DNA from: Bacteroidales bacterium
GTDB lineage: Bacteria; Bacteroidota; Bacteroidia; Bacteroidales; UBA12077
DNA: 64,000 bases
Reading direction: 5' to 3'
Assembly (NCBI GenBank): GCA_028282585.1
Contig: JANQHR010000052.1
Location: 24,363-88,362 of the forward strand
Positions 40,328 through 55,583 of this stretch are shown one piece after another. Within the stretch, counting starts at the first letter, position 1. Each line of letters opens with the position of its first letter. Under the pieces are notes generated by a model. That model was given only the letters and a program-made list of their open reading frames with translations, searched no databases and was not told the origin of the DNA. Made by a program: the position numbers and the translations under genes.

Positions 40328-40743
40328 TTGCAACAGGAGAAGACATTTTGCAGTTCATTCCTCAAAGAGCTCCAATGGTAATGGTTGAAAAACTCCATAA
40401 GGCAGAAAACGGCCAAACCATTGGAAGTTTTGAAATAAAAGAAGAAAATATTTTCTGTAAAGATGGTTCTTTGCAAGAGCCCGGGTTAATTGAAAATATA
40501 GCACAAACTGCTGCCGTAGGTGTGGGGTTCGAGTATAGAAATGAAGACAAAGAAGTGCCAACCGGTTATATTGGAGCAGTGCAAAAGCTTACCATACATA
40601 AATTGCCGGAAGTAGGCAAAAACATTATTACAGAAATAAATGTTGAACATAAAGTATTTAATACAACCCTAATTAATGGTAAAATCACATGCAATGATGA
40701 GTTAATTGCAGATTGTACTATGAAAATTTTTCTGGATGAATAG
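40306..40743 (+). CDS. hotdog-fold 3-hydroxyacyl-ACP dehydratase-like protein
   Basis: ILQFIPQRAPMVMVEKL N-terminal motif and the hotdog length (145 aa), as in APE-locus dehydratases. Confidence 0.6.
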   Translation: MGIYDHIIATGEDILQFIPQRAPMVMVEKLHKAENGQTIGSFEIKEENIFCKDGSLQEPGLIENIAQTAAVGVGFEYRNEDKEVPTGYIGAVQKLTIHKLPEVGKNIITEINVEHKVFNTTLINGKITCNDELIADCTMKIFLDE

Positions 40744-40745
40744 AA

Positions 40746-41204
40746 AATGATTAAATGCATAAATGATTAAATAAAGAATCACATGAATAAAATGACAGAA
40801 AAGGAAATATTTATAGAGAATTTAAAGAAACGAACCAAAAAATTTGCTGTTGATGTTATTTTATTTTGTAATTCACTTAAGGTGTGCAAAGCTTCTGACG
40901 TTATAACTTATCAACTTGTAAAATCTGCAACATCAACTGGGGCTAATTATCGTGCAGCATGCAGAGCTAGGTCAAAAAAGGAATTTTTTAGCAAAATTTG
41001 CATTGTTGTTGAAGAGGCTGATGAATCTGAATATTGGTTAGAACTTATAAATGATACTAATTTATCGAATGATAAAAATGAATTATTAAGGCTTTATAAT
41101 GAAGCAAATGAAATTACAAAGATAATGACAAAGGCGAAAAACACATCTTACGTAAGTAAAACTTAATACATTTGATAATTTTAGCATTTACTCATTTAAG
41201 CATT
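40746..41204 (+). mobile_element. four-helix-bundle gene cassette 1 with 27-nt imperfect inverted flanks
   Basis: 40746-40772 aatgattaaatgcataaatgattaaat matches the reverse complement of 41178-41204 (aatgcttaaatgagtaaatgctaaaat) at 22 of 27 positions. Mobility itself is inferred. Confidence 0.45.
40783..41166 (+). CDS. four-helix-bundle protein (23S rRNA intervening-sequence protein / Avd-like family)
   Basis: Family core QLVKSATSTGANYRAACRARSKKEFFSKICIVVEEADESEYWLELI. Length is 127 aa. Confidence 0.85.
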   Translation: MNKMTEKEIFIENLKKRTKKFAVDVILFCNSLKVCKASDVITYQLVKSATSTGANYRAACRARSKKEFFSKICIVVEEADESEYWLELINDTNLSNDKNELLRLYNEANEITKIMTKAKNTSYVSKT

Positions 41205-41217
41205 GAAACTAAAAACC

Positions 41218-41619
41218 ATGGAAAAAGATAAAGTACCACAAGATGAAGGGATAACGGGGGGAATAACCCGAGAAGTTCAATATGCTGTTGATAAAGACGG
41301 CAAATATGTAAAAACCTTCAGTAAAGGTTGGGAACCTAAAAATATAGTCAACGAACTTGCATGGGAAGATATACAAGAATTGGTTGATGAAGCTGATGAA
41401 AAAATAAAAGCAGGCAAAGCAAGCCCAATTATGCATTACATGGCTAAAAACCAAATGAATGTTACGTTGCTTGCCGACTATGTAGAATTATCCAAATGGA
41501 AGGTTAAGAAACACCTGAAACCAAAAGGATTCAAGAACCTAAAGCCAGAACAATTAGAAAATTATGCGAAAGTATTCAATATTAGCGTAGGTGAGTTAGC
41601 TAACTTTAAGCCTGAATAA
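41218..41619 (+). CDS. XRE-like helix-turn-helix protein (paralog of 33426-33926)
   Basis: MNVTLLADYVELSKWKVKKHLK ... LENYAKVFNISVGEL. The track start at 41203 is TTG inside the cassette flank; ATG 41218 is preferred. Confidence 0.5.
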   Translation: MEKDKVPQDEGITGGITREVQYAVDKDGKYVKTFSKGWEPKNIVNELAWEDIQELVDEADEKIKAGKASPIMHYMAKNQMNVTLLADYVELSKWKVKKHLKPKGFKNLKPEQLENYAKVFNISVGELANFKPE

Positions 41620-43774: not shown

Positions 43775-45058
43775 ATGATACGATTAATATCATCCATATA
43801 TAAAGAGTTTTTAGTTCTTATTAGAGATCGAGCAGGATTGGCAATTTTATTTATTATGCCTTTAGTTCTTATACTCATAATGACTTTAATTCAAGATGCA
43901 ACTTTCAGGACGGTAAAAGAAGTTGACATCTCAATGATTCTAGTAAATAATGATAGGGATAGTTTAGGCGAAGCTATTAGCCAAGGATTATACGATTCAG
44001 AGTTTTTTACTATAGTCGAAGAAATTGATGGAGAAAAAATCACCGATTCTTTAGCAAAAGAATTAGTTGCAAGAGGCGATTATAAAATTGGAATTATTAT
44101 TCCGGAAAGAGCAACAGATGCTATTCGAGGCAATGTTAATGCTTTAATCAATAAATCTTTCAAATCATTTAATGTTCCGGGAGTAAAGAAAAGAACCAGG
44201 AAAAGTACAATTGATATTACTATTTATATTGACCCTGCAACAAGCCAGTCTTTTAAAAATATGGTAATGAGTTCCTTAAAGGAGTTTACTTCACAGCTAG
44301 AGATTGAAATGTTTTTTAAGAACTTTTCGGAAGCCATGGCTCAAATGATGCCAGGCCAAAAACCTATAAAATTTGAAAGCTTTGAAACCATAAAGTACCA
44401 GGAAGTTTATGCTTCAACAACAAAGGATGAAATGCTTCCAAATTCGGTTCAACATAATGTACCTGCATGGACTATGTTCGCAATGTTCTTTATTGTACTG
44501 CCACTAGCTGGAAACATTATTAAAGAACGGGATGATGGAAGTGCTTTCCGTTTAAAAACAATGCCAGGGTCTTTTGTTACAGTTATGTTTAGTAAGATTT
44601 TTGTATTTCTAGGTGTAGCATTTTTACAGTTTATTTTAATGCTAATGGTTGGTGTTTACATCATGCCACTAATGGGATTGCCACAGTTGGAAATTGGCCC
44701 TCATAAAATTGCATTAGGTGTTATGGCAATTGCTTCCGGGTTAGCCGCAACAGGTTACGGAGTTGCTATTGGAACTATCGCAACTACCCATGAACAAGCA
44801 GCCACTTTTGGTGCTGTTTCAATTATCATTTTTGCAGCTTTAGGCGGCATTTGGGTTCCGGTATATGTAATGCCTCATACAATAAGAATTATCAGCCAGT
44901 TCTCTCCTCTTCATTGGGGGTTAAATGGCTTTTATGATATATTCCTTCGTGGCGGTGATATTTCTGTAGTAATCGCTGAAACTGCAAAATTGTTGCTGTT
45001 TTTTGTAATCATGCTATTAATAGCAGTTGCTTATAATAAGTACACAAAAACCAAATAA
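43775..45058 (+). CDS. ABC-2-type transporter permease
   Basis: N-terminal TM helix, a large extracytoplasmic loop, then five C-terminal TM helices. It pairs with the ATPase at 42762. Confidence 0.8.
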   Translation: MIRLISSIYKEFLVLIRDRAGLAILFIMPLVLILIMTLIQDATFRTVKEVDISMILVNNDRDSLGEAISQGLYDSEFFTIVEEIDGEKITDSLAKELVARGDYKIGIIIPERATDAIRGNVNALINKSFKSFNVPGVKKRTRKSTIDITIYIDPATSQSFKNMVMSSLKEFTSQLEIEMFFKNFSEAMAQMMPGQKPIKFESFETIKYQEVYASTTKDEMLPNSVQHNVPAWTMFAMFFIVLPLAGNIIKERDDGSAFRLKTMPGSFVTVMFSKIFVFLGVAFLQFILMLMVGVYIMPLMGLPQLEIGPHKIALGVMAIASGLAATGYGVAIGTIATTHEQAATFGAVSIIIFAALGGIWVPVYVMPHTIRIISQFSPLHWGLNGFYDIFLRGGDISVVIAETAKLLLFFVIMLLIAVAYNKYTKTK

Positions 45059-45065
45059 ATCCCAG

Positions 45066-45539
45066 GTTCATAGTTTAAAGTACAAAGTTTAAAAGTTTTA
45101 TATTTAATGGCAGCATTTACAAAATTTGAAGATATTGAAGCTTGGAGAAAAGCTCGTGAATTATGCAAGCTTATCTTTGAAATAACTGAAAAAGACAAGT
45201 TTTCCAGAGATTTTTCTTTAAAAGACCAAATTAGAAGATCTTCTGGTAGTGTAATGGACAATATTGCTGAAGGCTTTGAAAGAGGTGGAAGAAAAGAATT
45301 TATACAATTTCTTTTTATTTCAAAATCATCTTGTGCTGAAACAAAATCACAGTTATATCGGGCACTTGATTATAAATATATTGACAAAAATGAATTGAAT
45401 AAATGGTATGAGAAAGCTTGCGAATGCACAAAACTCATTGTTGGATTAATCAATTATCTCAAATCATCTAGTGTTAAAGGCCTAAAGTATTTATAAAATC
45501 ACTTTGAAAACTTTGAACTGTAAACTTTGAACTAAGAAC
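45066..45539 (+). mobile_element. four-helix-bundle gene cassette 2 with inverted word-repeat flanks
   Basis: Upstream is gttcatagtttaaagtacaaagtttaaaagtttt. The reverse complement of the downstream flank is gttcttagttcaaagtttacagttcaaagttttcaaagtg. They share (c/t)aaagtt words. Confidence 0.4.
45107..45496 (+). CDS. four-helix-bundle protein (23S rRNA IVS protein family, second subfamily)
   Basis: FEDIEAWRKARELCKLIFEIT ... LKDQIRRSSGSVMDNIAEGFERGGRKEFIQFLFISKSSCAETKSQLY. Confidence 0.85.
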   Translation: MAAFTKFEDIEAWRKARELCKLIFEITEKDKFSRDFSLKDQIRRSSGSVMDNIAEGFERGGRKEFIQFLFISKSSCAETKSQLYRALDYKYIDKNELNKWYEKACECTKLIVGLINYLKSSSVKGLKYL

Positions 45540-45628
45540 TATTAAAACATTGTTAATAATTTAAAACATAATATGCTAACTTTTAATCCATAGAGCTTAA
45601 TTTAGCAGTTTGTTAAAAAAATAGAAAA

Positions 45629-46057
45629 TTGGAAAAGAAACCACTAATACATAGAACTGAAATCGTTGTAAGGTTTAGTGAAGTAGATTCGATGGGAATC
45701 GTATGGCATGGTAATTATGCCAAATACTTTGAAGATGGCCGTGAAGCATTTGGGAAGGCTTTGGGCTTAAGTTACCTGGATGTTTATGCAAACAAGCACC
45801 TCACTCCTCTTGTTAAACTTGATTTTGAGTACAAAACTCCTCTTGAATATGGAGATTCAGCAATTATAGAAACAAGGTATATTGACCATGATGCTGCTAA
45901 AATTCATTTTGAATATACCATATACAACAAAAAAAATAACAAGGTTGCTGCAACCGGAGAAAGCATTCAGGTGTTTTTAAATCTAGAAAGAGAATTGGTT
46001 TTAATTGCTCCTGATTTTTTCCTTGAATGGAAAAGAAAAATGGGACTCCTTGAATAA
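45629..46057 (+). CDS. 4HBT/YbgC-type acyl-CoA(ACP) thioesterase
   Basis: RFSEVDSMGIVWHGNY contains the catalytic Asp. TTG 45629 is the first in-frame start after the stop at 45614-45616. Confidence 0.8.
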   Translation: MEKKPLIHRTEIVVRFSEVDSMGIVWHGNYAKYFEDGREAFGKALGLSYLDVYANKHLTPLVKLDFEYKTPLEYGDSAIIETRYIDHDAAKIHFEYTIYNKKNNKVAATGESIQVFLNLERELVLIAPDFFLEWKRKMGLLE

Positions 46058-46520
46058 TGAACATCGATTAACGAATATAGAATTAAGAAATGGCAAAGAC
46101 ATTGACAAAATATGATTTAGAAGAAAGACTGATTAATTTTTCAGTATTGATAATTGATATAGTTAATGAAATGCCAAATACAAAAGCAGCAAATCATCTT
46201 TCGGGACAACTTGTTCGTTCTGGTACTTCGCCCGCTCTTAATTATGGTGAAGCGCAAAGTGCAGAATCAAGAAAGGATTTCATTCATAAGATGAAGGTTA
46301 TTCTTAAAGAATTAAGAGAAACATTTGTGTGTTTGAAGATAATTCATCGATGTAAATTGTTTAAAACAGAAGAAAAAATTATAATAGCTAAAGAAGAAAA
46401 TAATGAGCTTATTTCAATATTTGTAAAAAGCATCGAAACAGCAAAAAACAATTTAAATTCCAATAAATCTTAAATCGTTAATCTGTGTTCGATGTTCGAT
46501 ATTCAAATAAGAATTGAATA
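46058..46520 (+). mobile_element. four-helix-bundle gene cassette 3 with gaaca(t/c)cga word flanks
   Basis: Upstream is tgaacatcgattaacgaatat. Downstream is atcgttaatctgtgttcgatgttcgatattc, whose reverse complement is gaatatcgaacatcgaacacagattaacgat. Confidence 0.45.
46090..46473 (+). CDS. four-helix-bundle protein (23S rRNA IVS protein family)
   Basis: GQLVRSGTSPALNYGEAQSAESRKDFIHKMKVILKELRET. Length is 127 aa. Confidence 0.85.
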   Translation: MAKTLTKYDLEERLINFSVLIIDIVNEMPNTKAANHLSGQLVRSGTSPALNYGEAQSAESRKDFIHKMKVILKELRETFVCLKIIHRCKLFKTEEKIIIAKEENNELISIFVKSIETAKNNLNSNKS

Positions 46521-46541
46521 TGATTTAAGAAGATTAATAAA

Positions 46542-47702
46542 ATGAATAAAATTTACACAATAGCAGACAACATAATATCATCTTTGGGCTTTACAAGCAA
46601 AGAAAACTTTGAGAACCTTAAGCAAGGCATATCTGGAATCAAACAAACATCAGACCCTAAAATTACACAGGTTCCAATGCAATGTTCTTTAGTTAATACA
46701 GAGAAATTAAATTCGGAATTTGAAAAAATTGGAAAACCTGAAGGATATACACGCCTGGAGAAACTAATGATATTATCTATCGCAGATTGCTTAAAACAAT
46801 CAGGTGTAGATTCTACAAGTGAAGACACTTTGTTTATTTTTTCATCGGTTAAAGGAAATATCGATTTAATTGAGGATGAAAACCATCCTTTTGAAGAAGA
46901 CAGAATAAACCTGTGGGCAATATCTGATGCAATTTGTAATTTCTTCAAGGCGAAAAATGAAGCAATTTTTGTATCGAATGCATGCATTTCAGGTGCCACA
47001 GCTATCATAACGGCAGCCCAATATTTATCCGCTAAAAAATATAAAAATGCCATTGTTTGCGGTGGTGATATTATTTCTGAATTTACACCTTCTGGTTTTC
47101 AATCGTTCAAAGCAGTGAGCGAAGAGCCTTGTAAACCTTTTGATGCAAACAGGAATGGTATCACTTTAGGCGAAGGTGCTGGTACAATTATTTTAACTGC
47201 TGATAAAGATTTAGTTAAAGAAGAAAATCCAATAGTTTTCAGAGGTGGGGCAAATACAAATGATGCAAACCATATTTCAGGGCCATCGAGAACTGGAGAT
47301 GGATTATATTATGCAATCAGAAATGCACTAAACCAAGCAAATAAAACCAATACTGAAATCGACTACATTTCGGGGCATGGAACGGCAACTCCATACAACG
47401 ATGAAATGGAATCGAAAGCCATTTCATGGGCCGGGCTTAAACATGTTCCCGTTAATAGCCTGAAAGGCTACTGGGGGCACACTTTAGGAGCTGCAGGAAT
47501 CATTGAAAGTATTGCTGGAATTCATTCTATAAAGGAAAACTGTTTAATAAGAACGAATGGATTTTCTGAACATGGTGTTAGTGAAGCAATTAATGTAATC
47601 AATGAATTTAAGGAAACTGAAGTAAAGAATTTCTTAAAAACAGCTTCTGGTTTTGGTGGTAGTAATGCCGCAGTTTATTTTTCTGAATTAAATGCTGATT
47701 AA
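46542..47702 (+). CDS. beta-ketoacyl-ACP synthase
   Basis: SNACISGATA, GHGTATPYND, GHTLGAAG, GFGGSNAAVYF. Confidence 0.85.
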   Translation: MNKIYTIADNIISSLGFTSKENFENLKQGISGIKQTSDPKITQVPMQCSLVNTEKLNSEFEKIGKPEGYTRLEKLMILSIADCLKQSGVDSTSEDTLFIFSSVKGNIDLIEDENHPFEEDRINLWAISDAICNFFKAKNEAIFVSNACISGATAIITAAQYLSAKKYKNAIVCGGDIISEFTPSGFQSFKAVSEEPCKPFDANRNGITLGEGAGTIILTADKDLVKEENPIVFRGGANTNDANHISGPSRTGDGLYYAIRNALNQANKTNTEIDYISGHGTATPYNDEMESKAISWAGLKHVPVNSLKGYWGHTLGAAGIIESIAGIHSIKENCLIRTNGFSEHGVSEAINVINEFKETEVKNFLKTASGFGGSNAAVYFSELNAD

Positions 47703-47737
47703 TTAGAAAATTGAAAATAGAAAATTATTAGAACATT

Positions 47738-48172
47738 ATGTCTTATATTAGAATTTGGTTACATTGTGTTTGGGGAACTAAAAAGCGAATTCCTTTTCTA
47801 ACAAAAGACAATAAATGGGATATTATAAACCATATTAAAGATAATGCAAAGGCAAAAGGCATTTACATAAATTTTATTAATGGAAACAAAGAGCATATTC
47901 ATTGTATAATTTCGCTTAAGGCTGATGAAGCCTTATCTAAAACTATTCAATTAATTAAGGGAGAATCTTCATTTTGGATAAATAAAAACAGTTTATCAAA
48001 AGGTAAATTTGAATGGGCGGATGAATACTTTGCTGTTTCAATTAGTGAATCTCAAGTGCCTAAAGTAAGGGATTACATAAAGAATCAAGAAGAGCATCAT
48101 AGCAATAAAACATGGAAAGAAGAATATGAAGAATTTATACAAAAGTATAATTTCGAAAAGATTAAGGGCTAA
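47738..48172 (+). CDS. IS200/RAYT-like Y1 (HUH) transposase
   Basis: IWLHCVWGTKKRIPFL, the HUH motif EHIHCIIS, and a catalytic Tyr region VRDYIKNQEEHH. Length is 144 aa. Confidence 0.8.
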   Translation: MSYIRIWLHCVWGTKKRIPFLTKDNKWDIINHIKDNAKAKGIYINFINGNKEHIHCIISLKADEALSKTIQLIKGESSFWINKNSLSKGKFEWADEYFAVSISESQVPKVRDYIKNQEEHHSNKTWKEEYEEFIQKYNFEKIKG

Positions 48173-48197
48173 AGCCCTCGTTATTTTGAGGATTTAT

Positions 48198-48221
48198 AAC
48201 CCCAGCCTTAAGGCTGGGGTT
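48198..48221. repeat. GC-rich REP-like hairpin next to RAYT gene
   Basis: aaccccagcc-ttaa-ggctggggtt is a perfect 10-bp stem. It starts 25 nt after the transposase stop. Confidence 0.6.
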
Positions 48222-48277
48222 AAAGAAAATACCCTTGAATGGACTTTAGTCCCTTAATTTACTTAATTACCACGTTT

Positions 48278-48907
48278 ATGGAAAACATCATATCAAAATA
48301 TTGCATTATACAACCGCATAAGGTTATAGTTGATGGAAAATCAGAATTAATCGATCCTGAGAAAAGCGAATTCGGAGCATTCATGAAATCCATCTATAAA
48401 CATTACGATATAAAGTATCCAAAGTATTTTAAAATGGATAACCTATGCAAGATTGCTTTTATTGCATCCGAAATTGTATTGAAAGGAAATGAACATATCA
48501 AGGAATTGGACCCTACCAAAGTAGGTGTGATTTTACAAAACTCGCATTCATCCATAGATACAGATACTAAATACAACGATACTATTAAGGATAAATCAAA
48601 CTACTTTCCAAGCCCGGCAGTATTTGTTTATACCTTGCCCAACGTAATGATTGGCGAAATTTGTATTCGAAATAAGTTTCAAGGTGAAAATACCTGTTTT
48701 ATAGCCAAACAATTCAACCCCGAATTTGTAACTGAATATGTAGGCGAACTGTTAGGTTCTGGCAAGTTAGATGCTTGTATTGCCGGGTGGGCAGATTACA
48801 TGGATGGAGAATACAGTTCGATGTTGTTTTTAGTTGAAAAAAATAAGGAAAATAAAAAAGATAGTATTAGTTTTAACCCCCAAATCATAAATGGATTAAT
48901 TAAGTAA
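48278..48907 (+). CDS. short ketosynthase-N-terminal-like protein of APE loci (no catalytic triad seen)
   Basis: SPAVFVYTLPNVMIGEICIR segment and its position before ACP-KS-CLF. The track start is ATG 48239; ATG 48278 (MENIISKY) is preferred. Confidence 0.45.
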   Translation: MENIISKYCIIQPHKVIVDGKSELIDPEKSEFGAFMKSIYKHYDIKYPKYFKMDNLCKIAFIASEIVLKGNEHIKELDPTKVGVILQNSHSSIDTDTKYNDTIKDKSNYFPSPAVFVYTLPNVMIGEICIRNKFQGENTCFIAKQFNPEFVTEYVGELLGSGKLDACIAGWADYMDGEYSSMLFLVEKNKENKKDSISFNPQIINGLIK

Positions 48908-48913
48908 ATAGAA

Positions 48914-49168
48914 ATGGAAGAGTTAATTTTAAAGATTAAAGAACAAGTAATAGAGGTATTGAATTTAGAAGATATTGAGCCAGCAGATATTGATACAGAT
49001 GCACCATTATTTGGTGATGGTTTAGGGCTTGATTCAATTGATGCATTAGAATTGATCGTATTATTAGAAAAACAATATGGAATAAAAATCGAAGACCCAA
49101 AAGACGGAAAAAAGATTTTTTATTCAATTAGGACAATTGCTGAATACATCGAAGAAAAAAAGAAATAA
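48914..49168 (+). CDS. acyl carrier protein
   Basis: LGLDSIDALELIV motif. Length is 84 aa. Confidence 0.85.
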   Translation: MEELILKIKEQVIEVLNLEDIEPADIDTDAPLFGDGLGLDSIDALELIVLLEKQYGIKIEDPKDGKKIFYSIRTIAEYIEEKKK

Positions 49169-49189
49169 TATTTGATAAAGGATTTGTAG

Positions 49190-50389
49190 ATGTCAAAGAG
49201 GGTATTTGTAACAGGCATAGGAATTATATCAGGAATCGGAAATAATGTAGAAGAAACACTTCAATCTCTTAAAGAGAAAAAATCCGGAGTAGAAGATATC
49301 AAGTATCTTCAAACCAACCACAAAGGTGTCATTCCTGTTTCGGAAGTAAAGTTATCTGAAGAAGAATTGATTAAAAGAGCCGGATTGCCTCAAGGTGAAC
49401 CTTATACTCGATCGACTCTAATTGGTATAATTGCTGCTGACGAAGCAGTTAAAAATGCTCAGATTAATGATATCAAAGAATGTAAAACCGGATTGATATC
49501 CGGAACTACTGTTGGTGGAATGGACAAAAGCGAGCTTTATTACAGAGACCTTTTAGAAACTACAAACCATATCGAATATATCGAAACCCACGATTGTGGT
49601 GATAGTACTGAGCGAATTGCTGATTACATTGGGATTAAGGATTTTGTTTCAACTACAAGTACTGCGTGTTCATCCGCTGCTAATTCAATGATATTAGGAG
49701 CCAGAATGATCAAAAACGGTTTACTAGACCGTTGTGTTGCAGGTGGAATCGAATCATTAACCAAATACCACATGAATGGCTTTAACACATTAATGATTCT
49801 TGACCGTGAACCGTGTAAACCTTTTGATGAAAACAGAAAAGGTTTAAACCTTGGTGAAGGAGCTGCCTTTCTGGTGTTAGAATCTGAAGAGATGGTTCAA
49901 AAATCTGGTAAAAAAGTGCTTGCTGAATTAACGGGTTATGGAAACTCATGTGAAGCTTTCCATCAAACAGCTTCTACTCCTGAAGGTAAAGGTGCATATG
50001 CAGCCATGAAAGAAGCTTTGGAAAGAAGCGGGTTAAAGCCGGAAGATATTGATTATGTGAATGCTCATGGTACAGGAACAGATAACAATGACCTTTCAGA
50101 AGGAAGAGCTATTGAAAACATTTTTGGTAAGAATATTCCTAAGGTAAGTTCAACTAAATCGTATACCGGGCACACAACAAGTGCTGCAGGTGGTGTTGAA
50201 GCAGTTATATCAGTTCTTACCTTACAGCACAACATGATTTTCCCGAACCTGAATTTTAAAGAGCAAATGAAAGAACTTAAATTCAAACCTGTAACTGAAG
50301 TTATAGAAAATGTTAAGGTCGACCATGTACTATCCAATTCTTTTGGTTTCGGAGGTAATAATTCAGCGTTAATTTTCTCAAGATATTAG
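49190..50389 (+). CDS. beta-ketoacyl-ACP synthase II-like
   Basis: STACSSAANS, NAHGTGTDNND, GHTTSAAGG, FGFGGNNSALIF. Confidence 0.9.
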   Translation: MSKRVFVTGIGIISGIGNNVEETLQSLKEKKSGVEDIKYLQTNHKGVIPVSEVKLSEEELIKRAGLPQGEPYTRSTLIGIIAADEAVKNAQINDIKECKTGLISGTTVGGMDKSELYYRDLLETTNHIEYIETHDCGDSTERIADYIGIKDFVSTTSTACSSAANSMILGARMIKNGLLDRCVAGGIESLTKYHMNGFNTLMILDREPCKPFDENRKGLNLGEGAAFLVLESEEMVQKSGKKVLAELTGYGNSCEAFHQTASTPEGKGAYAAMKEALERSGLKPEDIDYVNAHGTGTDNNDLSEGRAIENIFGKNIPKVSSTKSYTGHTTSAAGGVEAVISVLTLQHNMIFPNLNFKEQMKELKFKPVTEVIENVKVDHVLSNSFGFGGNNSALIFSRY

Positions 50390-50390
50390 T

Positions 50391-51455
50391 ATGGAAGTTT
50401 ACATAAAAGGCATCGGTAATATATCTCCTCAAAATACTACAGATAGCAAAGTATTTTTAGATGAAGTTGTGAATCACGAATCTGATTTTCTTTCTTGTAT
50501 TGAACCCAATTATAAAGAATTTATTAATCCCATTCAGCTTCGCCGAATGAGTAAACTGATAAAAATGGGGATCAGTGCTTCAAAAATTTGTTTGCAGGAT
50601 GCTGGTGTTGAAGAACCAGGTGCAATTATTACCGGAACAGGACTGGGGTTGGTTGGTGATACTGAAAAATTCCTGAACCAGGTTTTAGACCATAATGAGG
50701 AACTTCTTGCCCCCACTGCTTTTATTCAATCAACGCACAATACAATTAGCGGGCAGGTTGCAATTGCCTTAAAATGCTTTAAATACAACAATACATACTC
50801 GCACCGCGGTTTTTCCTTTGAAAGTGCGCTTTTAGATGGAATGCTGTTGGTTGAAAATAAGGATGCTGGCCATGTTTTGGTTGGCGGTTTCGATGAAATC
50901 ACTGGTGAACACTATAAAATCATCAAAAAAACAAAGTGGGTAAAAGATGAAACTATAAAAAGCCTTGAACTAATTGATCATAAAACGCAAGGAACCATTG
51001 TTGGCGAAAGTGTTGCTTTCTTTACGTTAACTGGTAAGAAAGATGAAAACACGTACGCAAAAATTCAAGATATTAAGACCATATATAAACCTGAAAACAA
51101 CCATGAAATTGAAACTAAAATCGATGAATTCTTAGCTAAAAATAAGCTAAAAAAGCAAGATATTGATTTGGTGGTTTTAGGTTTAAATGGAAACGTTGAC
51201 ACTGATGATGTTTACCTTCATCTAGCAGATAACTATTTCAATACAAATTATGCTTATTTCAAGCACCTTTCCGGTGATTACCACACGGTTGGTTCATTTG
51301 CATTATGGTTTGCTGCAAATTCAATTAAACATCAGAATGTACCAGAAGTAGCTCGTTTCAGAAAAGAAAACTTTACTGAAAAACCAATAAAAAACGTATT
51401 GGTATACAATCATTTTAGAAAAGTTGACCATTCAATATTTTTATTAACTCAATGA
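50391..51455 (+). CDS. Cys-less ketosynthase partner (chain-length-factor-like)
   Basis: KS-fold segments (LRRMSKLIKMG, ITGTGLG) are present, but the active-site position reads QSTHNTISG. It starts 2 nt after the KS gene. Confidence 0.7.
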   Translation: MEVYIKGIGNISPQNTTDSKVFLDEVVNHESDFLSCIEPNYKEFINPIQLRRMSKLIKMGISASKICLQDAGVEEPGAIITGTGLGLVGDTEKFLNQVLDHNEELLAPTAFIQSTHNTISGQVAIALKCFKYNNTYSHRGFSFESALLDGMLLVENKDAGHVLVGGFDEITGEHYKIIKKTKWVKDETIKSLELIDHKTQGTIVGESVAFFTLTGKKDENTYAKIQDIKTIYKPENNHEIETKIDEFLAKNKLKKQDIDLVVLGLNGNVDTDDVYLHLADNYFNTNYAYFKHLSGDYHTVGSFALWFAANSIKHQNVPEVARFRKENFTEKPIKNVLVYNHFRKVDHSIFLLTQ

Positions 51456-52213
51456 TCAAACCAAGAACTACATTCGTTCTTTACATCATTGTTTTAATCC
51501 TGGTTTATCTCTTTCTTCCATGGAAAGGGATATTTTTTACTCTATTAACAGTCTTATTTTTAGCTCATTTAGTTTATTGCTCGGTAAATATTTGCTCTCA
51601 AGCTTACATTAAAACCTTTTGCAAACGCGATACACAAGAAAAAAAGATAGCCATCACTTTTGATGATGGGCCGGATTCAGAAATTACTCCGAAGGTTTTA
51701 GAGATATTAGACGAGTTCGCTGTAAAAGCTACTTTCTTTTGTATCGGAAATCAAATCGAACGCAATAGAGATATCTTAAAAGCGTTAGATTCAAAAGGGC
51801 ATTTAATTGGTAATCATAGCTATTCGCACGAGTTTTGGTTCGATTTATACCCGGCAAATAAGATGCAAGAAGATATTAAAAAAACAAATGGACTGATTTT
51901 TGAAACAATTGGTAAAAAAACGAAGCTGTTCCGCCCTCCTTATGGTGTTACAAACCCTTCTTTAAAGAAAGCTATTAAGGATTTAGGTTTTAATACTATT
52001 GGATGGAGCATACGTTCTTTAGATACTGTAAGCAAAACTGAAAAAACTATTCAACGAATTAAGAAAAAATTATCACCGGGAGATATGATATTATTTCATG
52101 ATAACAGAGAACAAATAATTCTAATCTTAAAAGAGTTTATAGATTATACCAAATCCGAAGGATATGAGATTGTTCCTCTCGACGAATTATTAAATATACA
52201 AGCTTATGAATAA
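51452..52213 (+). CDS. polysaccharide deacetylase (NodB homology) with N-terminal TM helices
   Basis: ITFDDGP and HSYSH motifs. It overlaps the upstream gene by 4 nt. Confidence 0.8.
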   Translation: MIKPRTTFVLYIIVLILVYLFLPWKGIFFTLLTVLFLAHLVYCSVNICSQAYIKTFCKRDTQEKKIAITFDDGPDSEITPKVLEILDEFAVKATFFCIGNQIERNRDILKALDSKGHLIGNHSYSHEFWFDLYPANKMQEDIKKTNGLIFETIGKKTKLFRPPYGVTNPSLKKAIKDLGFNTIGWSIRSLDTVSKTEKTIQRIKKKLSPGDMILFHDNREQIILILKEFIDYTKSEGYEIVPLDELLNIQAYE

Positions 52214-52844
52214 GATATTAAGTACTATAATCAGCCTCTTTTTATTTATTACCATTTTAAATGCTCAGGAAAATGGATTTTCTAAGGTTAAGGATATGGA
52301 AAAAACGAAGTCGGATTTATCAAAATTAACAGAAAACACTTCAGCCATAAAGAGTCAATTTGTACAGGAAAAACATCTAAGTTTTTTAACTGAGAATATA
52401 AGGTCAAAAGGTGAATTTTACTTCAAAAGCCCTAATTCGCTTCGTTGGGAATATTCAGAGCCATTCGAATATATTATCGTATTCAATGATAAAAATATTA
52501 TGATTAAAGATGGTGCTAAAATCAGCACATATGATACTGAATCAAACAAAATGTTTAGCGAAATCAATAATATGATGATTGGTACTATTCAGGGCAATTT
52601 ATTTACAGATAACGAACGGTTTGATGTAGAATATTTTGAAAATGCTTCTCAATATTTGCTTGAACTGGATCCCAAATTACCTGAAATGAAAAGTATGCTG
52701 AAAACAATCAAAATATTCATTGATAAATCAGATATTTCAGTGGCTAAAATTAAAATGATTGAAAGTTCAGATGATTATACCAGTATTGAATTCATAAACA
52801 GAAAACTGAACCAGGAAATAAAAGAATCCATCTTTAAACTATAA
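52206..52844 (+). CDS. LolA-like outer-membrane lipoprotein carrier protein
   Basis: Signal peptide. FVQEKHLSFL ... KGEFYFKSPNSLRWEYSEPFEYIIVFNDKNIMIKDG matches the LolA pattern. Confidence 0.7.
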   Translation: MNKILSTIISLFLFITILNAQENGFSKVKDMEKTKSDLSKLTENTSAIKSQFVQEKHLSFLTENIRSKGEFYFKSPNSLRWEYSEPFEYIIVFNDKNIMIKDGAKISTYDTESNKMFSEINNMMIGTIQGNLFTDNERFDVEYFENASQYLLELDPKLPEMKSMLKTIKIFIDKSDISVAKIKMIESSDDYTSIEFINRKLNQEIKESIFKL

Positions 52845-52862
52845 CTATTTTACTTTTTAATA

Positions 52863-53552
52863 ATGAATATTGAACACCGAACACCGAATCTAGAAATAAA
52901 ACAAATCTTTCGTATTTCGTCATTCATAATTCGATATTCGGTATTTCTAATTATTGTATTTCTATCAAGTTGTGCCAATCCCCATAAAAATCTGCCAAGT
53001 ACTGAATTAAGAGTATCAGAAATTAAAAATATCCCTTATGCCCTTCCTTATACCGATAAAGCAATCATATACAAAACAGATATCAGCTTTTATAAAAATG
53101 ATATTAGTGGATTATTGATCATTAAAAGAACAGACGAAAATGTATATCGTATTGCTTTAACCACCCAATTCGGCTTAAAGATATTTGATTTTGAATTGAA
53201 CCATGGAGAACTCAAGGTAAAGTATTGTGTTGAATATTTAAATAAAAAAGTAATCCTAAACACATTTGAAACAGATTTCAACCTGCTTTTATTGCAAAAC
53301 AAATTTGATAGCATACAAAGAATACAAAACCAGAAACAAAATCAAACTATCTGGCAATTAAAATCGGGCAAATTAAACTACAACTATATAGAGGATGTAA
53401 ATTCGCAAAATGTTGTACGCATTAGCTTTAAGAAGAGAAATTCTGAAAAAATTTCAGTAGGTTTGTATGCGTACCGAGGTGATATTCCAGGAGAAATAAA
53501 GTTGGAGCATCACAACATAAAACTAAAAATGGATTTAAAATTGATTCAATAA
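52863..53552 (+). CDS. hypothetical lipoprotein (LolB-like position in APE loci)
   Basis: Lipobox FLIIVFLSSC. The first ~25 codons overlap a repeat element, so the true N-terminus is uncertain. Confidence 0.45.
   Translation: MNIEHRTPNLEIKQIFRISSFIIRYSVFLIIVFLSSCANPHKNLPSTELRVSEIKNIPYALPYTDKAIIYKTDISFYKNDISGLLIIKRTDENVYRIALTTQFGLKIFDFELNHGELKVKYCVEYLNKKVILNTFETDFNLLLLQNKFDSIQRIQNQKQNQTIWQLKSGKLNYNYIEDVNSQNVVRISFKKRNSEKISVGLYAYRGDIPGEIKLEHHNIKLKMDLKLIQ
52864..52946. repeat. gene-less inverted word-repeat element related to the cassette 3 flanks
   Basis: 52864-52883 gaatattgaacaccgaacac matches the reverse complement of 46485-46504 at 18 of 20 positions. The right arm attcgatattc (52928-52938) matches gttcgatattc (46494-46504) at 10 of 11. 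Confidence 0.55.
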
Positions 53553-55147: not shown

Positions 55148-55580
55148 GTACTTAAAGTGATCTAAAGTTTATAAGTGTCTAAAGTTATATGAATAATAAA
55201 GAGTTTAGCCAAAAATTAGAAACCAGAACCAAAGAATTTGCTAAAAGCATTATTAAACTCTCGGCAAGTCTCGAAAAATCATCAGAAAATAATGTAATTA
55301 AAAATCAAGTTACAAAATCAGGAACAAGTATTGGTGCAAATTATAGAGAAGCAAACCGGTCAAGAAGTCGAGCTGATTTTACGAATAAAATTAAAATTTG
55401 TGAAAGCGAAGCAAATGAAACCGTATACTGGTTAGAAATTATATCAGAAATGAATCTAGTAAAACTCGAAATAATCAGGCCAATTTTGATGGAAGCAAGA
55501 GAAATACTTGCTATTTTTACAACTATTAGCAAAAATGTTAAACTTAAGGCATTTTAGGCACTTTTAATTTTAGGCAATTC
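55148..55580 (+). mobile_element. four-helix-bundle gene cassette 4 with ctaaa(g/a)t word flanks
   Basis: Upstream is gtacttaaagtgatctaaagtttataagtgtctaaagtt. The reverse complement of the downstream flank is gaattgcctaaaattaaaagtgcctaaaatgccttaagtt. Confidence 0.4.
55189..55557 (+). CDS. four-helix-bundle protein (23S rRNA IVS protein family)
   Basis: NQVTKSGTSIGANYREANRSRSRADFTNKIKICESEANETVYWLEII. Length is 122 aa. Confidence 0.85.
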   Translation: MNNKEFSQKLETRTKEFAKSIIKLSASLEKSSENNVIKNQVTKSGTSIGANYREANRSRSRADFTNKIKICESEANETVYWLEIISEMNLVKLEIIRPILMEAREILAIFTTISKNVKLKAF

Positions 55581-55583
55581 AAC

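Follow-up and report, generated by a model that had tools for sequence, protein, structure and literature searches.

A heptad-repeat hairpin as the probable source of the start codon and signal-peptide n-region of a flexirubin-cluster lolB2 gene in Bacteroidales

We analyzed a 64,000-nt stretch of a Bacteroidales genome of 32% GC (hereafter, the window), in which a short inverted repeat occupies the 5′ end of the lipoprotein gene lolB2. Our best explanation overall, which we consider probable, is that an ancient heptad hairpin was taken over as the start codon of lolB2 and as the n-region of its signal peptide. Judged from its sequence, the focal feature carries no cargo and belongs to a widespread family of heptad-repeat hairpins that also flank one clade of PF05635 (S23p, or "23S rRNA intervening-sequence protein") genes. 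The features that carry this argument are the following.

52206-52844, plus strand: lolA2 (flexirubin LolA2; NF053544 LolA2_flexi, 218 bits; PF03548 match)
52863-53552, plus strand: lolB2 (flexirubin LolB2 lipoprotein), 229 aa (NF053540 LolB2_flexi, 145.4 bits against a cut-off of 60)
52863-52865, plus strand: start codon ATG, the sole canonical one of lolB2 (from the codon list)
52863-52973, plus strand: signal-peptide coding region, 36 residues, plus the lipidated Cys37 (from the translation)
52865-52895, plus strand: left arm, five heptads, GAATATT GAACACC GAACACC GAATCTA GAA
52896-52908, plus strand: loop, 13 nt, ATAAAACAAATCT
52909-52939, plus strand: right arm, an inverted array that pairs with the left arm, TTCGTAT TTCGTCA TTCATAA TTCGATA TTC
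46050-46506, plus strand: cassette 3, GAA-heptad arms (46050-46088 and 46468-46506) around a PF05635 gene (46090-46473)

The focal element has two inverted arms of 31 nt, each made up of five GAA-NNNN heptads, on either side of a 13-nt loop, with terminal inverted repeats present. The pattern (GAANNNN)x4-GAA had exactly two matches in the window, 52865-52895 on the plus strand and 52909-52939 on the minus strand, with 0 expected; the right arm, which is the minus-strand match, encodes ..RISSFIIRYS, including the Arg beside the hydrophobic core. The unit vocabulary GAAYRYC is represented by GAATATT and two copies of GAACACC in the left arm and by the reverse complement GAATATC in the right arm. 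As the first-pass annotation had reported, the arms resemble the right flank of cassette 3: GAATATTGAACACCGAACAC (52865-52884) shares 18 of 20 positions with the reverse complement of 46485-46504, and ATTCGATATTC (52929-52939) agrees with 46494-46504 at 10 of 11. These matches are real, and the quoted strings sit 1 nt to the right of where that annotation had placed them. Its geometry of 20- and 11-nt arms 44 nt apart gives way to two 31-nt arms 13 nt apart, and, as it stated, no cargo lies between them. A direct match of 42 nt, 74% identical, also joins the focal element to the left flank of cassette 3.

Within 3 mismatches, the 20-mer GAATATTGAACACCGAACAC occurred only at the focal and cassette 3 sites in the 64 kb (0.00 expected from 100 shuffles), and GAACAYCGAACA, within 1 mismatch, had 3 matches in the window versus 0.41 expected; within the window, the word pair is not the ubiquitous low-complexity sequence that, by the first-pass annotation, would have spoken against its idea. 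A genome of this GC content and arms built of short tandem repeats would suit a chance resemblance among AT-rich, low-complexity stretches, and an assembly artefact might produce the same picture. Nevertheless, the three patterns were set against shuffles in which 0 to 0.41 matches are expected, and the same element recurs in at least 18 related genomes that were assembled independently. Together, the shuffle expectations and the independent assemblies refute such an origin, to which we assign next to no probability.

lolB2 lies directly downstream of lolA2 in the flexirubin cluster, and a search with LolB2 returned 107 homologs. ORF 52863-53552 reads MNIEHRTPNLEIKQIFRISSFIIRYSVFLIIVFLSSC. Its predicted signal peptide has an n-region about 20 to 25 residues longer than usual, followed by the h-region FLIIVFL and the lipobox LSSC; by sequence reading, the features of a lipoprotein signal are all present (3 Arg and 1 Lys versus 2 Glu, FLIIVFL, and LSSC). 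The Cys37 codon is 52971-52973, and Cys37 is the first residue of the mature protein. The codon list confirmed that a lipoprotein signal, FLIIVFLSSC, follows the element and that there is no other ATG. Indeed, besides the ATG at 52863, no in-frame ATG, GTG, or TTG precedes the lipobox. The element, which holds no cargo ORF, was said to lie within the first 28 codons; it does lie among the N-terminal codons, with a span of codons 1 to 26.

The start codon is formed by a heptad boundary (..AAT|GAA..), since heptad 1 opens with the G of the ATG. In four other loci (L155, L157, L154, and L002), the array runs one heptad further upstream (GAATAAT|GAA..), so that there the ATG is internal to the array. 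Cassette 3 shares this boundary sequence, GAATAAT|GAACATC. In loci L022-L031, the lolB2 ATG instead lies within the ..DNDKF.. codons of lolA2, whose stop is 49 to 52 nt before the Cys codon. This native ATG, which distant orthologs have inside the lolA2 3′ end, is absent in the window, where the lolA2 stop (TAA, 52842-52844) precedes the lolB2 ATG by 18 nt and shares its frame. In all GAA-type alleles, the native ATG is missing or is followed by a stop, and the array ATG is the sole in-frame ATG, GTG, or TTG. The claim that the element supplies the only canonical start codon holds: the ATG at 52863 is array-borne, and the native one is gone here.

At least 18 other alleles, with mature proteins 56 to 70% identical, carry the same element at the same site, unchanged in length and frame, and it is thus neither a recent nor a private insertion. 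Judging by these sequences, the allele is old and common to a group of Bacteroidales. On a tree of the mature domain, GAA-type, other-repeat, and element-free N termini are intermingled. Two loci that are 94.3% identical over 1.3 kb, L161 without and L163 with the element, differ in the whole junction segment, and GAA, element-free, and other-repeat alleles appear to have been exchanged by recombination of junction segments. An imperfect AT-rich direct repeat surrounds the focal element (TTTTTAATAATG at 52854-52865 and TTTCTAATTATTG at 52944-52956); no clean target-site duplication and no empty-versus-filled insertion was found at the focal site in the window or in the L161/L163 comparison. 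The mobility of the flanks that the first-pass annotation inferred is not supported as a recent event at lolB2: at least 18 other alleles share the element, and L161 and L163 differ by segment replacement. That the insertion rebuilt the 5′ end of the gene stands insofar as the element provides the sole canonical start, but the arrangement is ancient rather than fresh. GAA-type lolB2 alleles also occur in genomes without a cassette-3-type gene within 10 kb, which led us to reject a constant association between cassette 3 and the focal element.

We next consider whether the stretch is translated. Across 19 alleles, there were 0 stops in 701 in-frame codons, compared with 89 and 55 in the other two frames; because the alleles share ancestry, such counts overstate independence. 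In the unbiased subset, namely, the 8 alleles not chosen via gene calls, the chance of all frames being open is about 1e-15. Unrelated GC-rich repeats occupy the lolA2-lolB2 junction in sister alleles and are always in frame with the retained native ATG, which argues that the stretch is translated. The element behaves like the Rickettsia palindromic elements (RPEs) in being an in-frame, stop-free repeat within an ORF whose orthologs lack it. The contrary view takes the element for a noncoding intergenic hairpin, such as an RNase III-type site, an mRNA stabilizer, or a protein-binding site; LolB2 would then start at ATA (52926) or ATT (52929), both in frame just before the h-region, and gene callers would have produced the long ORF as an artefact. 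In its favor, the NF053540 profile match begins at LolB2 residue 27, the signal peptides of element-free orthologs comprise 17 to 24 residues, the stems of PF05635 cassettes resemble the RNase III-cut stems of rRNA intervening sequences (IVSs), and family members elsewhere are mostly intergenic (10 of 21 between convergent genes and 1 between divergent genes in metagenome contigs, among the matches listed). It is countered by the frame that is open in 19 of 19 alleles, by the GC-rich junction repeats described above, and by the alleles themselves, none of which offers an ATG, GTG, or TTG close to the h-region. We regard this alternative as unlikely.

Conservation within the element follows the nucleotides. 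Matches to the GAA core amounted to 0.88, 0.92, and 0.91 at codon positions 1, 2, and 3, and matches to the TTC core to 0.83, 0.83, and 0.74, while pairwise identity in the mature region was 0.76, 0.86, and 0.50. In the codon before Asn9, the third-position G is kept while the residue varies (P, L, Q, or M). At the level of the sequence, these data show that the GAA and TTC cores are held by a nucleic acid-level rather than a peptide-level constraint. The pattern MN[IK]EHR...F.IRYSI is nonetheless found in about 30 orthologs, and the first-pass annotation had held that an N-terminal peptide conserved in relatives would speak against its idea. The peptide is indeed conserved, yet the idea survives because what is conserved is the nucleotide sequence and because the peptide is missing from more distant orthologs; comparison of ortholog N termini showed that the distant ones have no extension, their signal peptides being of the short type given above. 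The same peptide pattern, along with the extended signal peptides known in other secreted proteins, would fit a peptide that is itself functional, for instance, an extended signal region that directs export or slows it down; the resemblance to cassette flanks would then be secondary. Such a function is hard to reconcile with third positions of the core that are as conserved as first and second ones (0.91, versus 0.50 in the mature part), with residues that vary where the core falls on the third position, and with sister alleles that carry unrelated GC-rich-repeat peptides or no extension. Moreover, the whole LolB2 protein had no Pfam match, the extended signal peptide region (ESPR) of autotransporters included. 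We consider a functional peptide very unlikely.

Hairpin stability was judged per allele by folding against shuffles. Column-wise covariation was unusable because the heptad register in which the arms pair differs from allele to allele, and RNAalifold gave no consensus structure in a common register for 18 alleles. A long, imperfect, single hairpin containing the ATG nevertheless recurs, with negative sense-strand z-scores in 17 of 18 alleles (mean, -1.8). The window's own sense-strand hairpin is a weak one (-15.4 kcal/mol; z = -1.8), whose longest uninterrupted run in the mRNA is no more than 10 pairs. In all 18 alleles, the more stable fold is that of the antisense strand (-25.7 versus -15.4 kcal/mol in the window; Wilcoxon p = 8e-6), its z-scores are more negative in 16 of 18 (mean, -2.9 versus -1.8), and in the window it forms an uninterrupted 18-bp helix with 4 G.U pairs. 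The sense strand of the focal element has 8 G and 15 C, opposite to the local coding-strand skew of G over C. Given the better antisense fold, the relevant structure could perhaps not be in the mRNA at all. Terminator and promoter scans yielded nothing meaningful. The sequence was found in four runs, all of DNA and from coral metagenomes.

The antisense stability and the base composition raise the question of whether the functional form is an antisense RNA hairpin on the minus strand or a single-stranded DNA hairpin for mobilization (e.g., by a Y1/RAYT-like enzyme), with the coding use in lolB2 being incidental. The window also contains other PF05635 cassettes and a Y1 transposase gene.

40740-41205, plus strand: PF05635 cassette with AAATG-type 8-nt periodic arms (gene 40783-41166)
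45066-45545, plus strand: PF05635 cassette with AAAGT-type periodic arms (gene 45107-45496)
47738-48172, in the same operon as lolB2: Y1_Tnp gene, adjoined by GC-rich hairpins, not GAA arrays
55148-55583, plus strand: PF05635 cassette with TAAAG-type arms (gene 55189-55557)

Besides the Y1_Tnp gene in the same operon, this minus-strand or DNA reading can draw on cassette 3, an insertion with a 7-bp direct repeat (TTGAATA at 46050-46056 and 46514-46520). However, Y1 transposases make no target duplications, the Y1 gene is accompanied by GC-rich hairpins and no link between it and GAA arrays was found, and the sole sigma-70-like match (52978-52950, minus strand) does not exceed chance and belongs to a promoter type not expected in Bacteroidota. 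Elsewhere, family members have no orientation bias relative to neighboring genes (5 of 10). Selection against structure around the start codon would give the same asymmetry. We therefore judge this reading quite unlikely and retain the takeover of the hairpin as the lolB2 start.

Cassette 3 lies 6.4 kb upstream of the focal element in the same flexirubin operon, and its junction is empty in 17 related genomes. Its flank duplex has a predicted stability of -28.9 kcal/mol, within the range of -18 to -29 kcal/mol for the flank duplexes of PF05635 cassettes in the window. Among PF05635 cassette flanks, the sense strand is the more stable one in 6 of 9 cases, with 39 G.U pairs in sense and 22 in antisense, a difference that is not decisive. 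The 45066-45545 cassette differs from cassette 3 in arm type and in protein clade. The 55148-55583 cassette directly follows a glycosyltransferase stop codon at a site that is empty in L162, and no target duplication was found at it. There is no rRNA in the window.

We defined the family as two inverted arrays of at least 4 GAA units at a 7-nt period, separated by a loop; the focal element, with 5 + 5 units and a 13-nt loop, falls within it. Members are laid out as 4 to 7 tandem (C)GAAYRY units, a loop, and an inverted array. A metagenome scan for GAATATYGAACAYCGAA returned at least 120 stretches; the matches listed and the related loci together gave 50 paired arrays, 39 of them in scanned metagenome contigs. 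Among the matches listed, these 39 came from contigs of 35 to 67% GC and most often had 5 units per arm, and loops were mostly 1 to 172 nt and mostly without cargo. Also among the matches listed, all three PF05635 genes in scanned contigs (L140, L121, and L069) had GAA arms; their proteins group with the cassette-3 protein (52 to 85% identity) and are at most 39% identical to the window's other PF05635 cassette proteins and relatives. About 600 kb of related loci held arrays only at the lolB2 site and cassette 3, and the 64-kb window held two sites; high-copy MITE behavior is therefore not seen in this lineage. The first-pass view of a MITE-like or cargo-deleted derivative is thus upheld as regards membership, without cargo, in the GAA-heptad family of the cassette 3 flanks, but derivation from cassette 3 by deletion is unsupported. 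No Rfam family matched the window or 12 element-rich metagenome loci at the gathering score, and at E values up to 10 there were only chance-level matches (44800-53200). A search by family names and literal arm sequences found no literature description of GAA-heptad hairpins.

We propose the following course of events. In the ancestor of a group of Bacteroidales, the element would have come to sit at the lolA2-lolB2 junction, and the native lolB2 ATG inside the lolA2 3′ end would then have been lost or cut off. The ATG at the heptad boundary would have taken over as the lolB2 start, with translation running through both arms and producing a 20- to 25-residue extension of the n-region. Signal peptidase II would cut off this extension, so that mature LolB2 would be unchanged. 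The start codon would be at the base of a weak mRNA stem, which ribosomes ending at the lolA2 stop probably open; such opening would keep the translational coupling of the native overlap. The C.A mismatches may have weakened the mRNA stem selectively.

Several known systems offer comparisons. Autotransporter ESPRs are extra N-terminal stretches of about 25 residues before a normal n-h-c region, with a conserved peptide motif. The LolB2 signal peptide likewise has an extra N-terminal stretch; unlike ESPRs, it is conserved in nucleotides, not in peptide, and has no Pfam match. REPs and BIMEs, which go with RAYT (Y1) transposases, are short imperfect palindromes that mostly sit at gene 3′ ends or between convergent genes; the family is similar in form and is often found between convergent genes, with a Y1_Tnp gene in the same operon here. 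REPs, however, are single palindromes of 20 to 40 nt with a conserved 5′ tetranucleotide, while the focal element consists of intragenic heptad arrays, and in contrast to REP/RAYT pairs, the hairpins beside the window's Y1 gene are GC-rich and differ in type from the GAA arrays. RPEs and other intragenic MITE-like repeats (ERIC, BOX, and Correia) are palindromic, lie in frame in genes, are translated, and are tolerated where the protein allows (PMC10969869). The focal repeat resembles RPEs in being palindromic, in frame, and apparently translated. It has no sequence relationship to them, its arms are tandem heptads, and it lies in a cleaved signal peptide and supplies the start codon; unlike RPEs, ERIC, BOX, and Correia repeats, it has few copies in the lineage and shows no clean target duplication at the focal site. 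Nor do the 64-kb window and about 600 kb of related loci contain the many copies and the transposase-encoding relative of a MITE, the PF05635 cargo being no known transposase.

IVSs with S23p/PF05635 genes are known from Coxiella, Leptospira, and Xanthomonas, and ORF-less rRNA IVSs also exist. Like a 23S rRNA IVS, the cassettes of the window are PF05635 genes within terminal inverted repeats that form a long stem; they differ in their location, an operon of protein-coding genes rather than helix 25 or 45 of 23S rRNA, and RNase III cutting of their stems would be a prediction. The focal copy departs further from IVSs in having no ORF, lying inside a coding region, and forming a much weaker stem. 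TRAP, the trp RNA-binding attenuation protein, assembles into a homo-oligomeric ring and binds regularly spaced GAG/UAG triplets with variable spacers, sometimes over a start region. By analogy only, the evenly spaced GAA triplets with variable spacers, most often five per arm among the matches listed, recall TRAP sites; there is no homology, the spacing is 4 nt versus 2 to 3 nt, the arrays come as inverted pairs, and binding is hypothetical. PDB entry 2RLD, of the PF05635 family, has five chains. The Coxiella 23S rRNA IVS contains an S23p ORF and a 28-bp stem cut by RNase III, with tandem heptamers (GACAGAT) directly upstream of the S23p ATG, and the S23p family forms toroidal homopentamers (PMC4990558). 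One might speculate that PF05635 (S23p) toroidal pentamers are sequence-specific, TRAP-like binders of the triplet cores that flank their own genes (about 5 units per arm, with clade-specific cores). Cargo-less arrays would then be trans targets, with host genes put under control of the cassette protein or marked for processing or mobilization, in one two-part system across Bacteroidota and beyond. We rate this broader scheme as an unlikely extension of our data.

Altogether, the locus would illustrate how a conserved lipoprotein gene can recruit a hairpin of selfish or repeat origin for its start codon and for the n-region of its signal peptide. At least three unrelated palindromic repeat families have been accommodated in frame at the lolA2-lolB2 junction, which stands out as a hot spot. 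Many odd N-terminal extensions that gene callers assign in Bacteroidota are conceptual translations of such repeats, of which at least one kind appears, on the evidence of its reading frames, to be truly translated. A widespread family of heptad hairpins, for which we found no Rfam family or published description, is tied to one PF05635 clade. Some PF05635 genes have a known role in diversity-generating retroelements. That the arm motif tracks the protein clade, together with the Coxiella S23p heptamers, may provide a testable handle on the very common PF05635 "four-helix-bundle" genes.

The GAA-heptad hairpin at 52865-52939 lies in the 5' end of lolB2, within a flexirubin/aryl-polyene type cluster in the right-hand third of the window (32% GC; source, a coral metagenome). 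The intergenic gaps of this operon hold small foreign genes, namely, four PF05635 genes and one IS200/Y1-type gene. PF05635 is the "23S rRNA intervening-sequence protein" family, a four-helix bundle.

Genes of the window considered here
40783-41166, PF05635 gene
45107-45496, PF05635 gene
46090-46473, PF05635 gene of cassette 3 (arms included, 46050-46506)
47738-48172, IS200/Y1_Tnp-like gene, 144 aa (PF01797, 87 bits; weak RAYT match)
directly upstream of lolB2, LolA2_flexi gene (profile match)
52863-53552, LolB2_flexi gene (NF053540, 145 bits against a cut-off of 60; the profile begins at residue 27)
55189-55557, PF05635 gene

The Y1_Tnp-like gene is inserted in the flexirubin operon, with GAAAATT heptads in the flank to its left (47706-47737) and the GC-rich hairpins AGGGCTAAAGCCCT and AACCCCAGCCTTAAGGCTGGGGTT in the flank to its right (48165-48230). 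Similar GC-rich hairpins also appear to be translated in some LolB2 N-termini (NPGLKPG..GLQP). A 138-aa open reading frame (ORF) with a Cro/C1-type HTH (41203-41619; PF13443) adjoins the first PF05635 cassette on its 3' side.

The 64 kb contain exactly two matches to the pattern (GAANNNN)x4-GAA, one on the plus strand (52865-52895) and one on the minus strand (52909-52939), against none expected. The element therefore consists of two inverted arms, each 31 nt long and made of five heptads, separated by a 13-nt loop. The first-pass annotation had correctly recognized inverted arms, but the true element is larger and more regular than it described; the strings it quoted are present, although each had been placed 1 base too far left. 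GAATATTGAACACCGAACAC lies at 52865-52884 and is identical to the reverse complement of 46485-46504, in the cassette 3 flank, at 18 of 20 positions, while ATTCGATATTC, at 52929-52939, agrees with 46494-46504 at 10 of 11. With up to three mismatches, the 20-mer GAATATTGAACACCGAACAC matched only these two window sites, against 0.00 expected from shuffles, which rules out chance similarity of the arms to that flank. The 12-mer GAACAYCGAACA gave three matches with 1 mismatch (0.41 expected), and a 42-nt stretch from the pre-arm bases to the start of the loop matched the cassette 3 left flank at 74% in direct orientation. The focal element is a member of the GAA-heptad family; it carries no cargo, as had been proposed, and lies in frame within codons 1 to 26 of lolB2.

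We compared the lolA2-lolB2 junction across orthologous loci, 31 of them taken from genome assemblies and a further 12 obtained via exact protein look-ups (comparison loci carry L-numbers). The most distant orthologs (L022-L031) have their lolB2 ATG within the last lolA2 codons (..DNDKF..), giving an overlap of ~26 nt between the genes and leaving only 49 to 52 nt from the lolA2 stop to the lipobox Cys codon. Eight loci (L005, L007-L009, L011-L013, and L017) keep the native overlapping ATG and have a GC-rich palindromic repeat, CCCCCTT..AAGGGGG.., directly 3' of the lolA2 stop; this repeat is in frame and yields extensions such as PPWRRGLGG..NPPNPLLKKGG. In the window's group, the native ATG is absent or followed by a stop, and the frame opens at the heptad-array ATG; the native start has been lost. 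The array is one unit longer upstream (GAATAAT-GAA..) in L155, L157, L154, and L002, thus extending past the ATG, which was therefore created by a heptad boundary; cassette 3 carries the identical GAATAAT-GAACATC. In the window, the lolA2 stop (52842-52844) lies 18 nt upstream of the array ATG and in the same frame. Since no second in-frame ATG, GTG, or TTG precedes the Cys codon, the earlier claim that the element supplies the lolB2 start codon holds.

Other sequences occur at this junction. The GC-rich repeat (CCCCCTT..AAGGGGGTTAGGGGGA .. AATCCCCCTnnCCCCCTTTTnAAAAGGGGG) in the LolB2 signal-peptide region folds at -30 to -60 kcal/mol. Some alleles carry a third repeat type, CTTTGTG/CACAAAG heptad hairpins, between the GAA element and the lolA2 stop, and CTTTGTG-type arms also flank or precede small PDDEXK_3 (PF13366) genes in the relatives' operon.

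Hairpins and PDDEXK_3 inserts in comparison loci
L001 9883-10000, L003 4890-5113, and L006 9862-10000, CTTTGTG/CACAAAG hairpins
L158 5383-5754, L161 3762-4133, and L163 1656-2027, PDDEXK_3 (PF13366) inserts

The lolA2-lolB2 junction is an insertion hot spot. Further evidence for this comes from L152 (1727-2978), where two extra genes separate lolA2 and lolB2, one of 260 aa without a family match and one of 158 aa with a faint PIN match.

Across 19 GAA-type alleles (those with the element at the junction), 701 in-frame codons contained no stop, while the other two frames contained 89 and 55 stops and were open in no allele. For the eight alleles not chosen via gene predictions, the probability that all would be open was ~1e-15, computed from the off-frame stop density of 0.109 per codon. 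The reading frame through the element has been kept open. Because it is open in all alleles and the off-frames are stop rich, the stretch appears to be translated. By codon position (1, 2, and 3), the match was 0.88, 0.92, and 0.91 for the GAA cores and 0.83, 0.83, and 0.74 for the TTC cores, compared with a pairwise identity of 0.76, 0.86, and 0.50 in the mature part. Moreover, a core G that lands on a third codon position is retained even though the residue varies (P, L, Q, or M). These sequence comparisons show that constraint on the element acts at the nucleotide level. The first-pass annotation had set an N-terminal peptide conserved in relatives against its insertion reading. A peptide, MN[IK]EHR..F.IRYSI, does recur in orthologs whose mature parts are 56 to 70% identical, yet its conservation is nucleotide-level, and it is wholly absent from more distant orthologs and some close ones; for both reasons, its recurrence does not refute that reading.

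The fold of each allele is a single long, imperfect hairpin whose stem base contains the ATG. Compared with dinucleotide shuffles, the sense strand had a negative z-score in 17/18 alleles, averaging -1.8; in the window it folds at -15.4 kcal/mol (z = -1.8). RNAalifold found no common-register structure over the alleles, because the heptads permit slipped pairings. Surprisingly, the antisense strand was more stable in 18/18 alleles (Wilcoxon p = 8e-6), and its z-scores were more negative in 16/18 (mean, -2.9). In the window (52851-52955, minus strand), it reaches -25.7 kcal/mol with an 18-bp uninterrupted helix that includes four G.U pairs, positions that are C.A mismatches in the mRNA. This consistent difference would also fit a function on the minus strand, and the element may act there as an antisense RNA or as single-stranded DNA. 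As the source of the asymmetry, we prefer selection that disfavors secondary structure near the start codon, with the cores retained. The sense strand of the element has 8 G and 15 C, opposite to the coding-strand G>C skew in the window. The GC-rich repeats at the lolA2-lolB2 site have no such strand bias, and that of the PF05635 cassette flanks leans the opposite way to the GAA element.

In the mature-domain tree, four kinds of N-terminus (GAA heptads, GC-rich repeat, second GC hairpin type, and none) were interspersed. L161 lacks the element and has the native overlapping ATG, whereas L163 has the element; over 1.3 kb they share 94.3% identity, yet everything between the lolA2 tail and the Cys codon differs, with no clean indel. 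The GAA-type allele is old, and because these loci differ by a whole segment, the junction types are probably long-standing alternative alleles that recombination has exchanged, not products of recent transposition. No convincing target duplication was found flanking the focal element. The case for insertion is better for cassette 3, which in the window has the 7-bp direct repeat TTGAATA at both ends (46050-46056 and 46514-46520). The thioesterase-ketosynthase junction is empty in 17 related genomes (8 to 85 nt, mostly 8 to 25 nt) and filled in the window and L005 only. L005 has a truncated PF05635 ORF of 86 aa at this site.

Each PF05635 gene of the window lies between inverted arms made of short tandem repeats with a period of 7 to 8 nt, whose core motif differs by cassette (AAATG, AAAGT, GAA, or TAAAG) and whose flank duplexes reach -18 to -29 kcal/mol. 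Three metagenome contigs among the matches listed also carry a PF05635 gene between GAA arms.

PF05635 genes compared with those of the window
L140 103-465, L121 185-598, and L069 6707-7108, GAA-armed, in metagenome contigs
L006 3198-3587 and L015 2986-3375, further PF05635 genes

The GAA-armed proteins, including that of cassette 3, share 52 to 85% identity with each other and at most 39% with proteins from the other PF05635 cassettes in the window or relatives of those proteins; a separate group, at 76 to 90% identity, comprises the AAAGT/AGTAC-armed proteins. The protein clade thus tracks the core motif of the flanking arms, and therefore either arms and gene evolve as a unit or the protein recognizes its own arms. 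The arms of cassette 3 (32% GC genome) and L121 (60% GC contig) share the exact 17-mer GAATATCGAACATCGAA, even though their proteins are only 60% identical. The solved structure closest to the cassette-3 protein is 2RLD, with five chains. Closest among published reports is the Coxiella 23S rRNA IVS, whose 28-bp terminal stem is cleaved by RNase III and which has tandem GACAGAT heptamers directly 5' of the S23p start; Xanthomonas S23p is a toroidal homopentamer (PMC4990558).

A metagenome scan for GAATATYGAACAYCGAA matched at least 120 stretches. Some fall in coding sequence of high GC content and are chance matches; most of those listed are (C)GAAYRY arrays ending in ..CGAAG, followed by a loop and an inverted array, on contigs of 35 to 67% GC, several with multiple copies. 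A strict detector found at least 50 paired arrays among the loci examined, with a mode of five units per arm (range, 4 to 7, rarely more) and loops mostly of 1 to 172 nt. Among the matches listed, elements with scorable neighbors lay between convergent genes in 10/21 cases and divergent genes in 1/21. Several elements, or very long arrays of 10 to 15 units, occur in the metagenome contigs L047, L048, L059, L064, L129, and L136, and those of L059/L136 and L064 form higher-order tandem repeats, suggesting lineages in which the family is abundant or expanding. No Rfam family matched the element, and literature searches by name and by sequence found no description of the GAA-heptad family. The focal copy does not fit a MITE in copy number or transposase partner across the window and the related loci examined, an IVS in location, or a REP in architecture. 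The window's PF05635 cassettes resemble an IVS in layout but lie within an mRNA operon. The element behaves like the Rickettsia RPEs, which are in-frame translated palindromic repeats (PMC10969869); unlike them, it donates a start codon and occupies a cleaved signal peptide.

Taken together, translation would start at 52863, and the extra 20 to 25 residues would lengthen the n-region and be cleaved off together with the signal peptide. The stem would be melted by ribosomes that terminate 18 nt upstream, at the lolA2 stop, which would keep lolB2 coupled to lolA2. The alleles would spread by recombination. We speculate that binding by some factor maintains the GAA cores, with the pentameric PF05635 protein of the matching clade as the best candidate. 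The element is of interest mainly because, at the family level, it connects heptad arrays with PF05635 clades.
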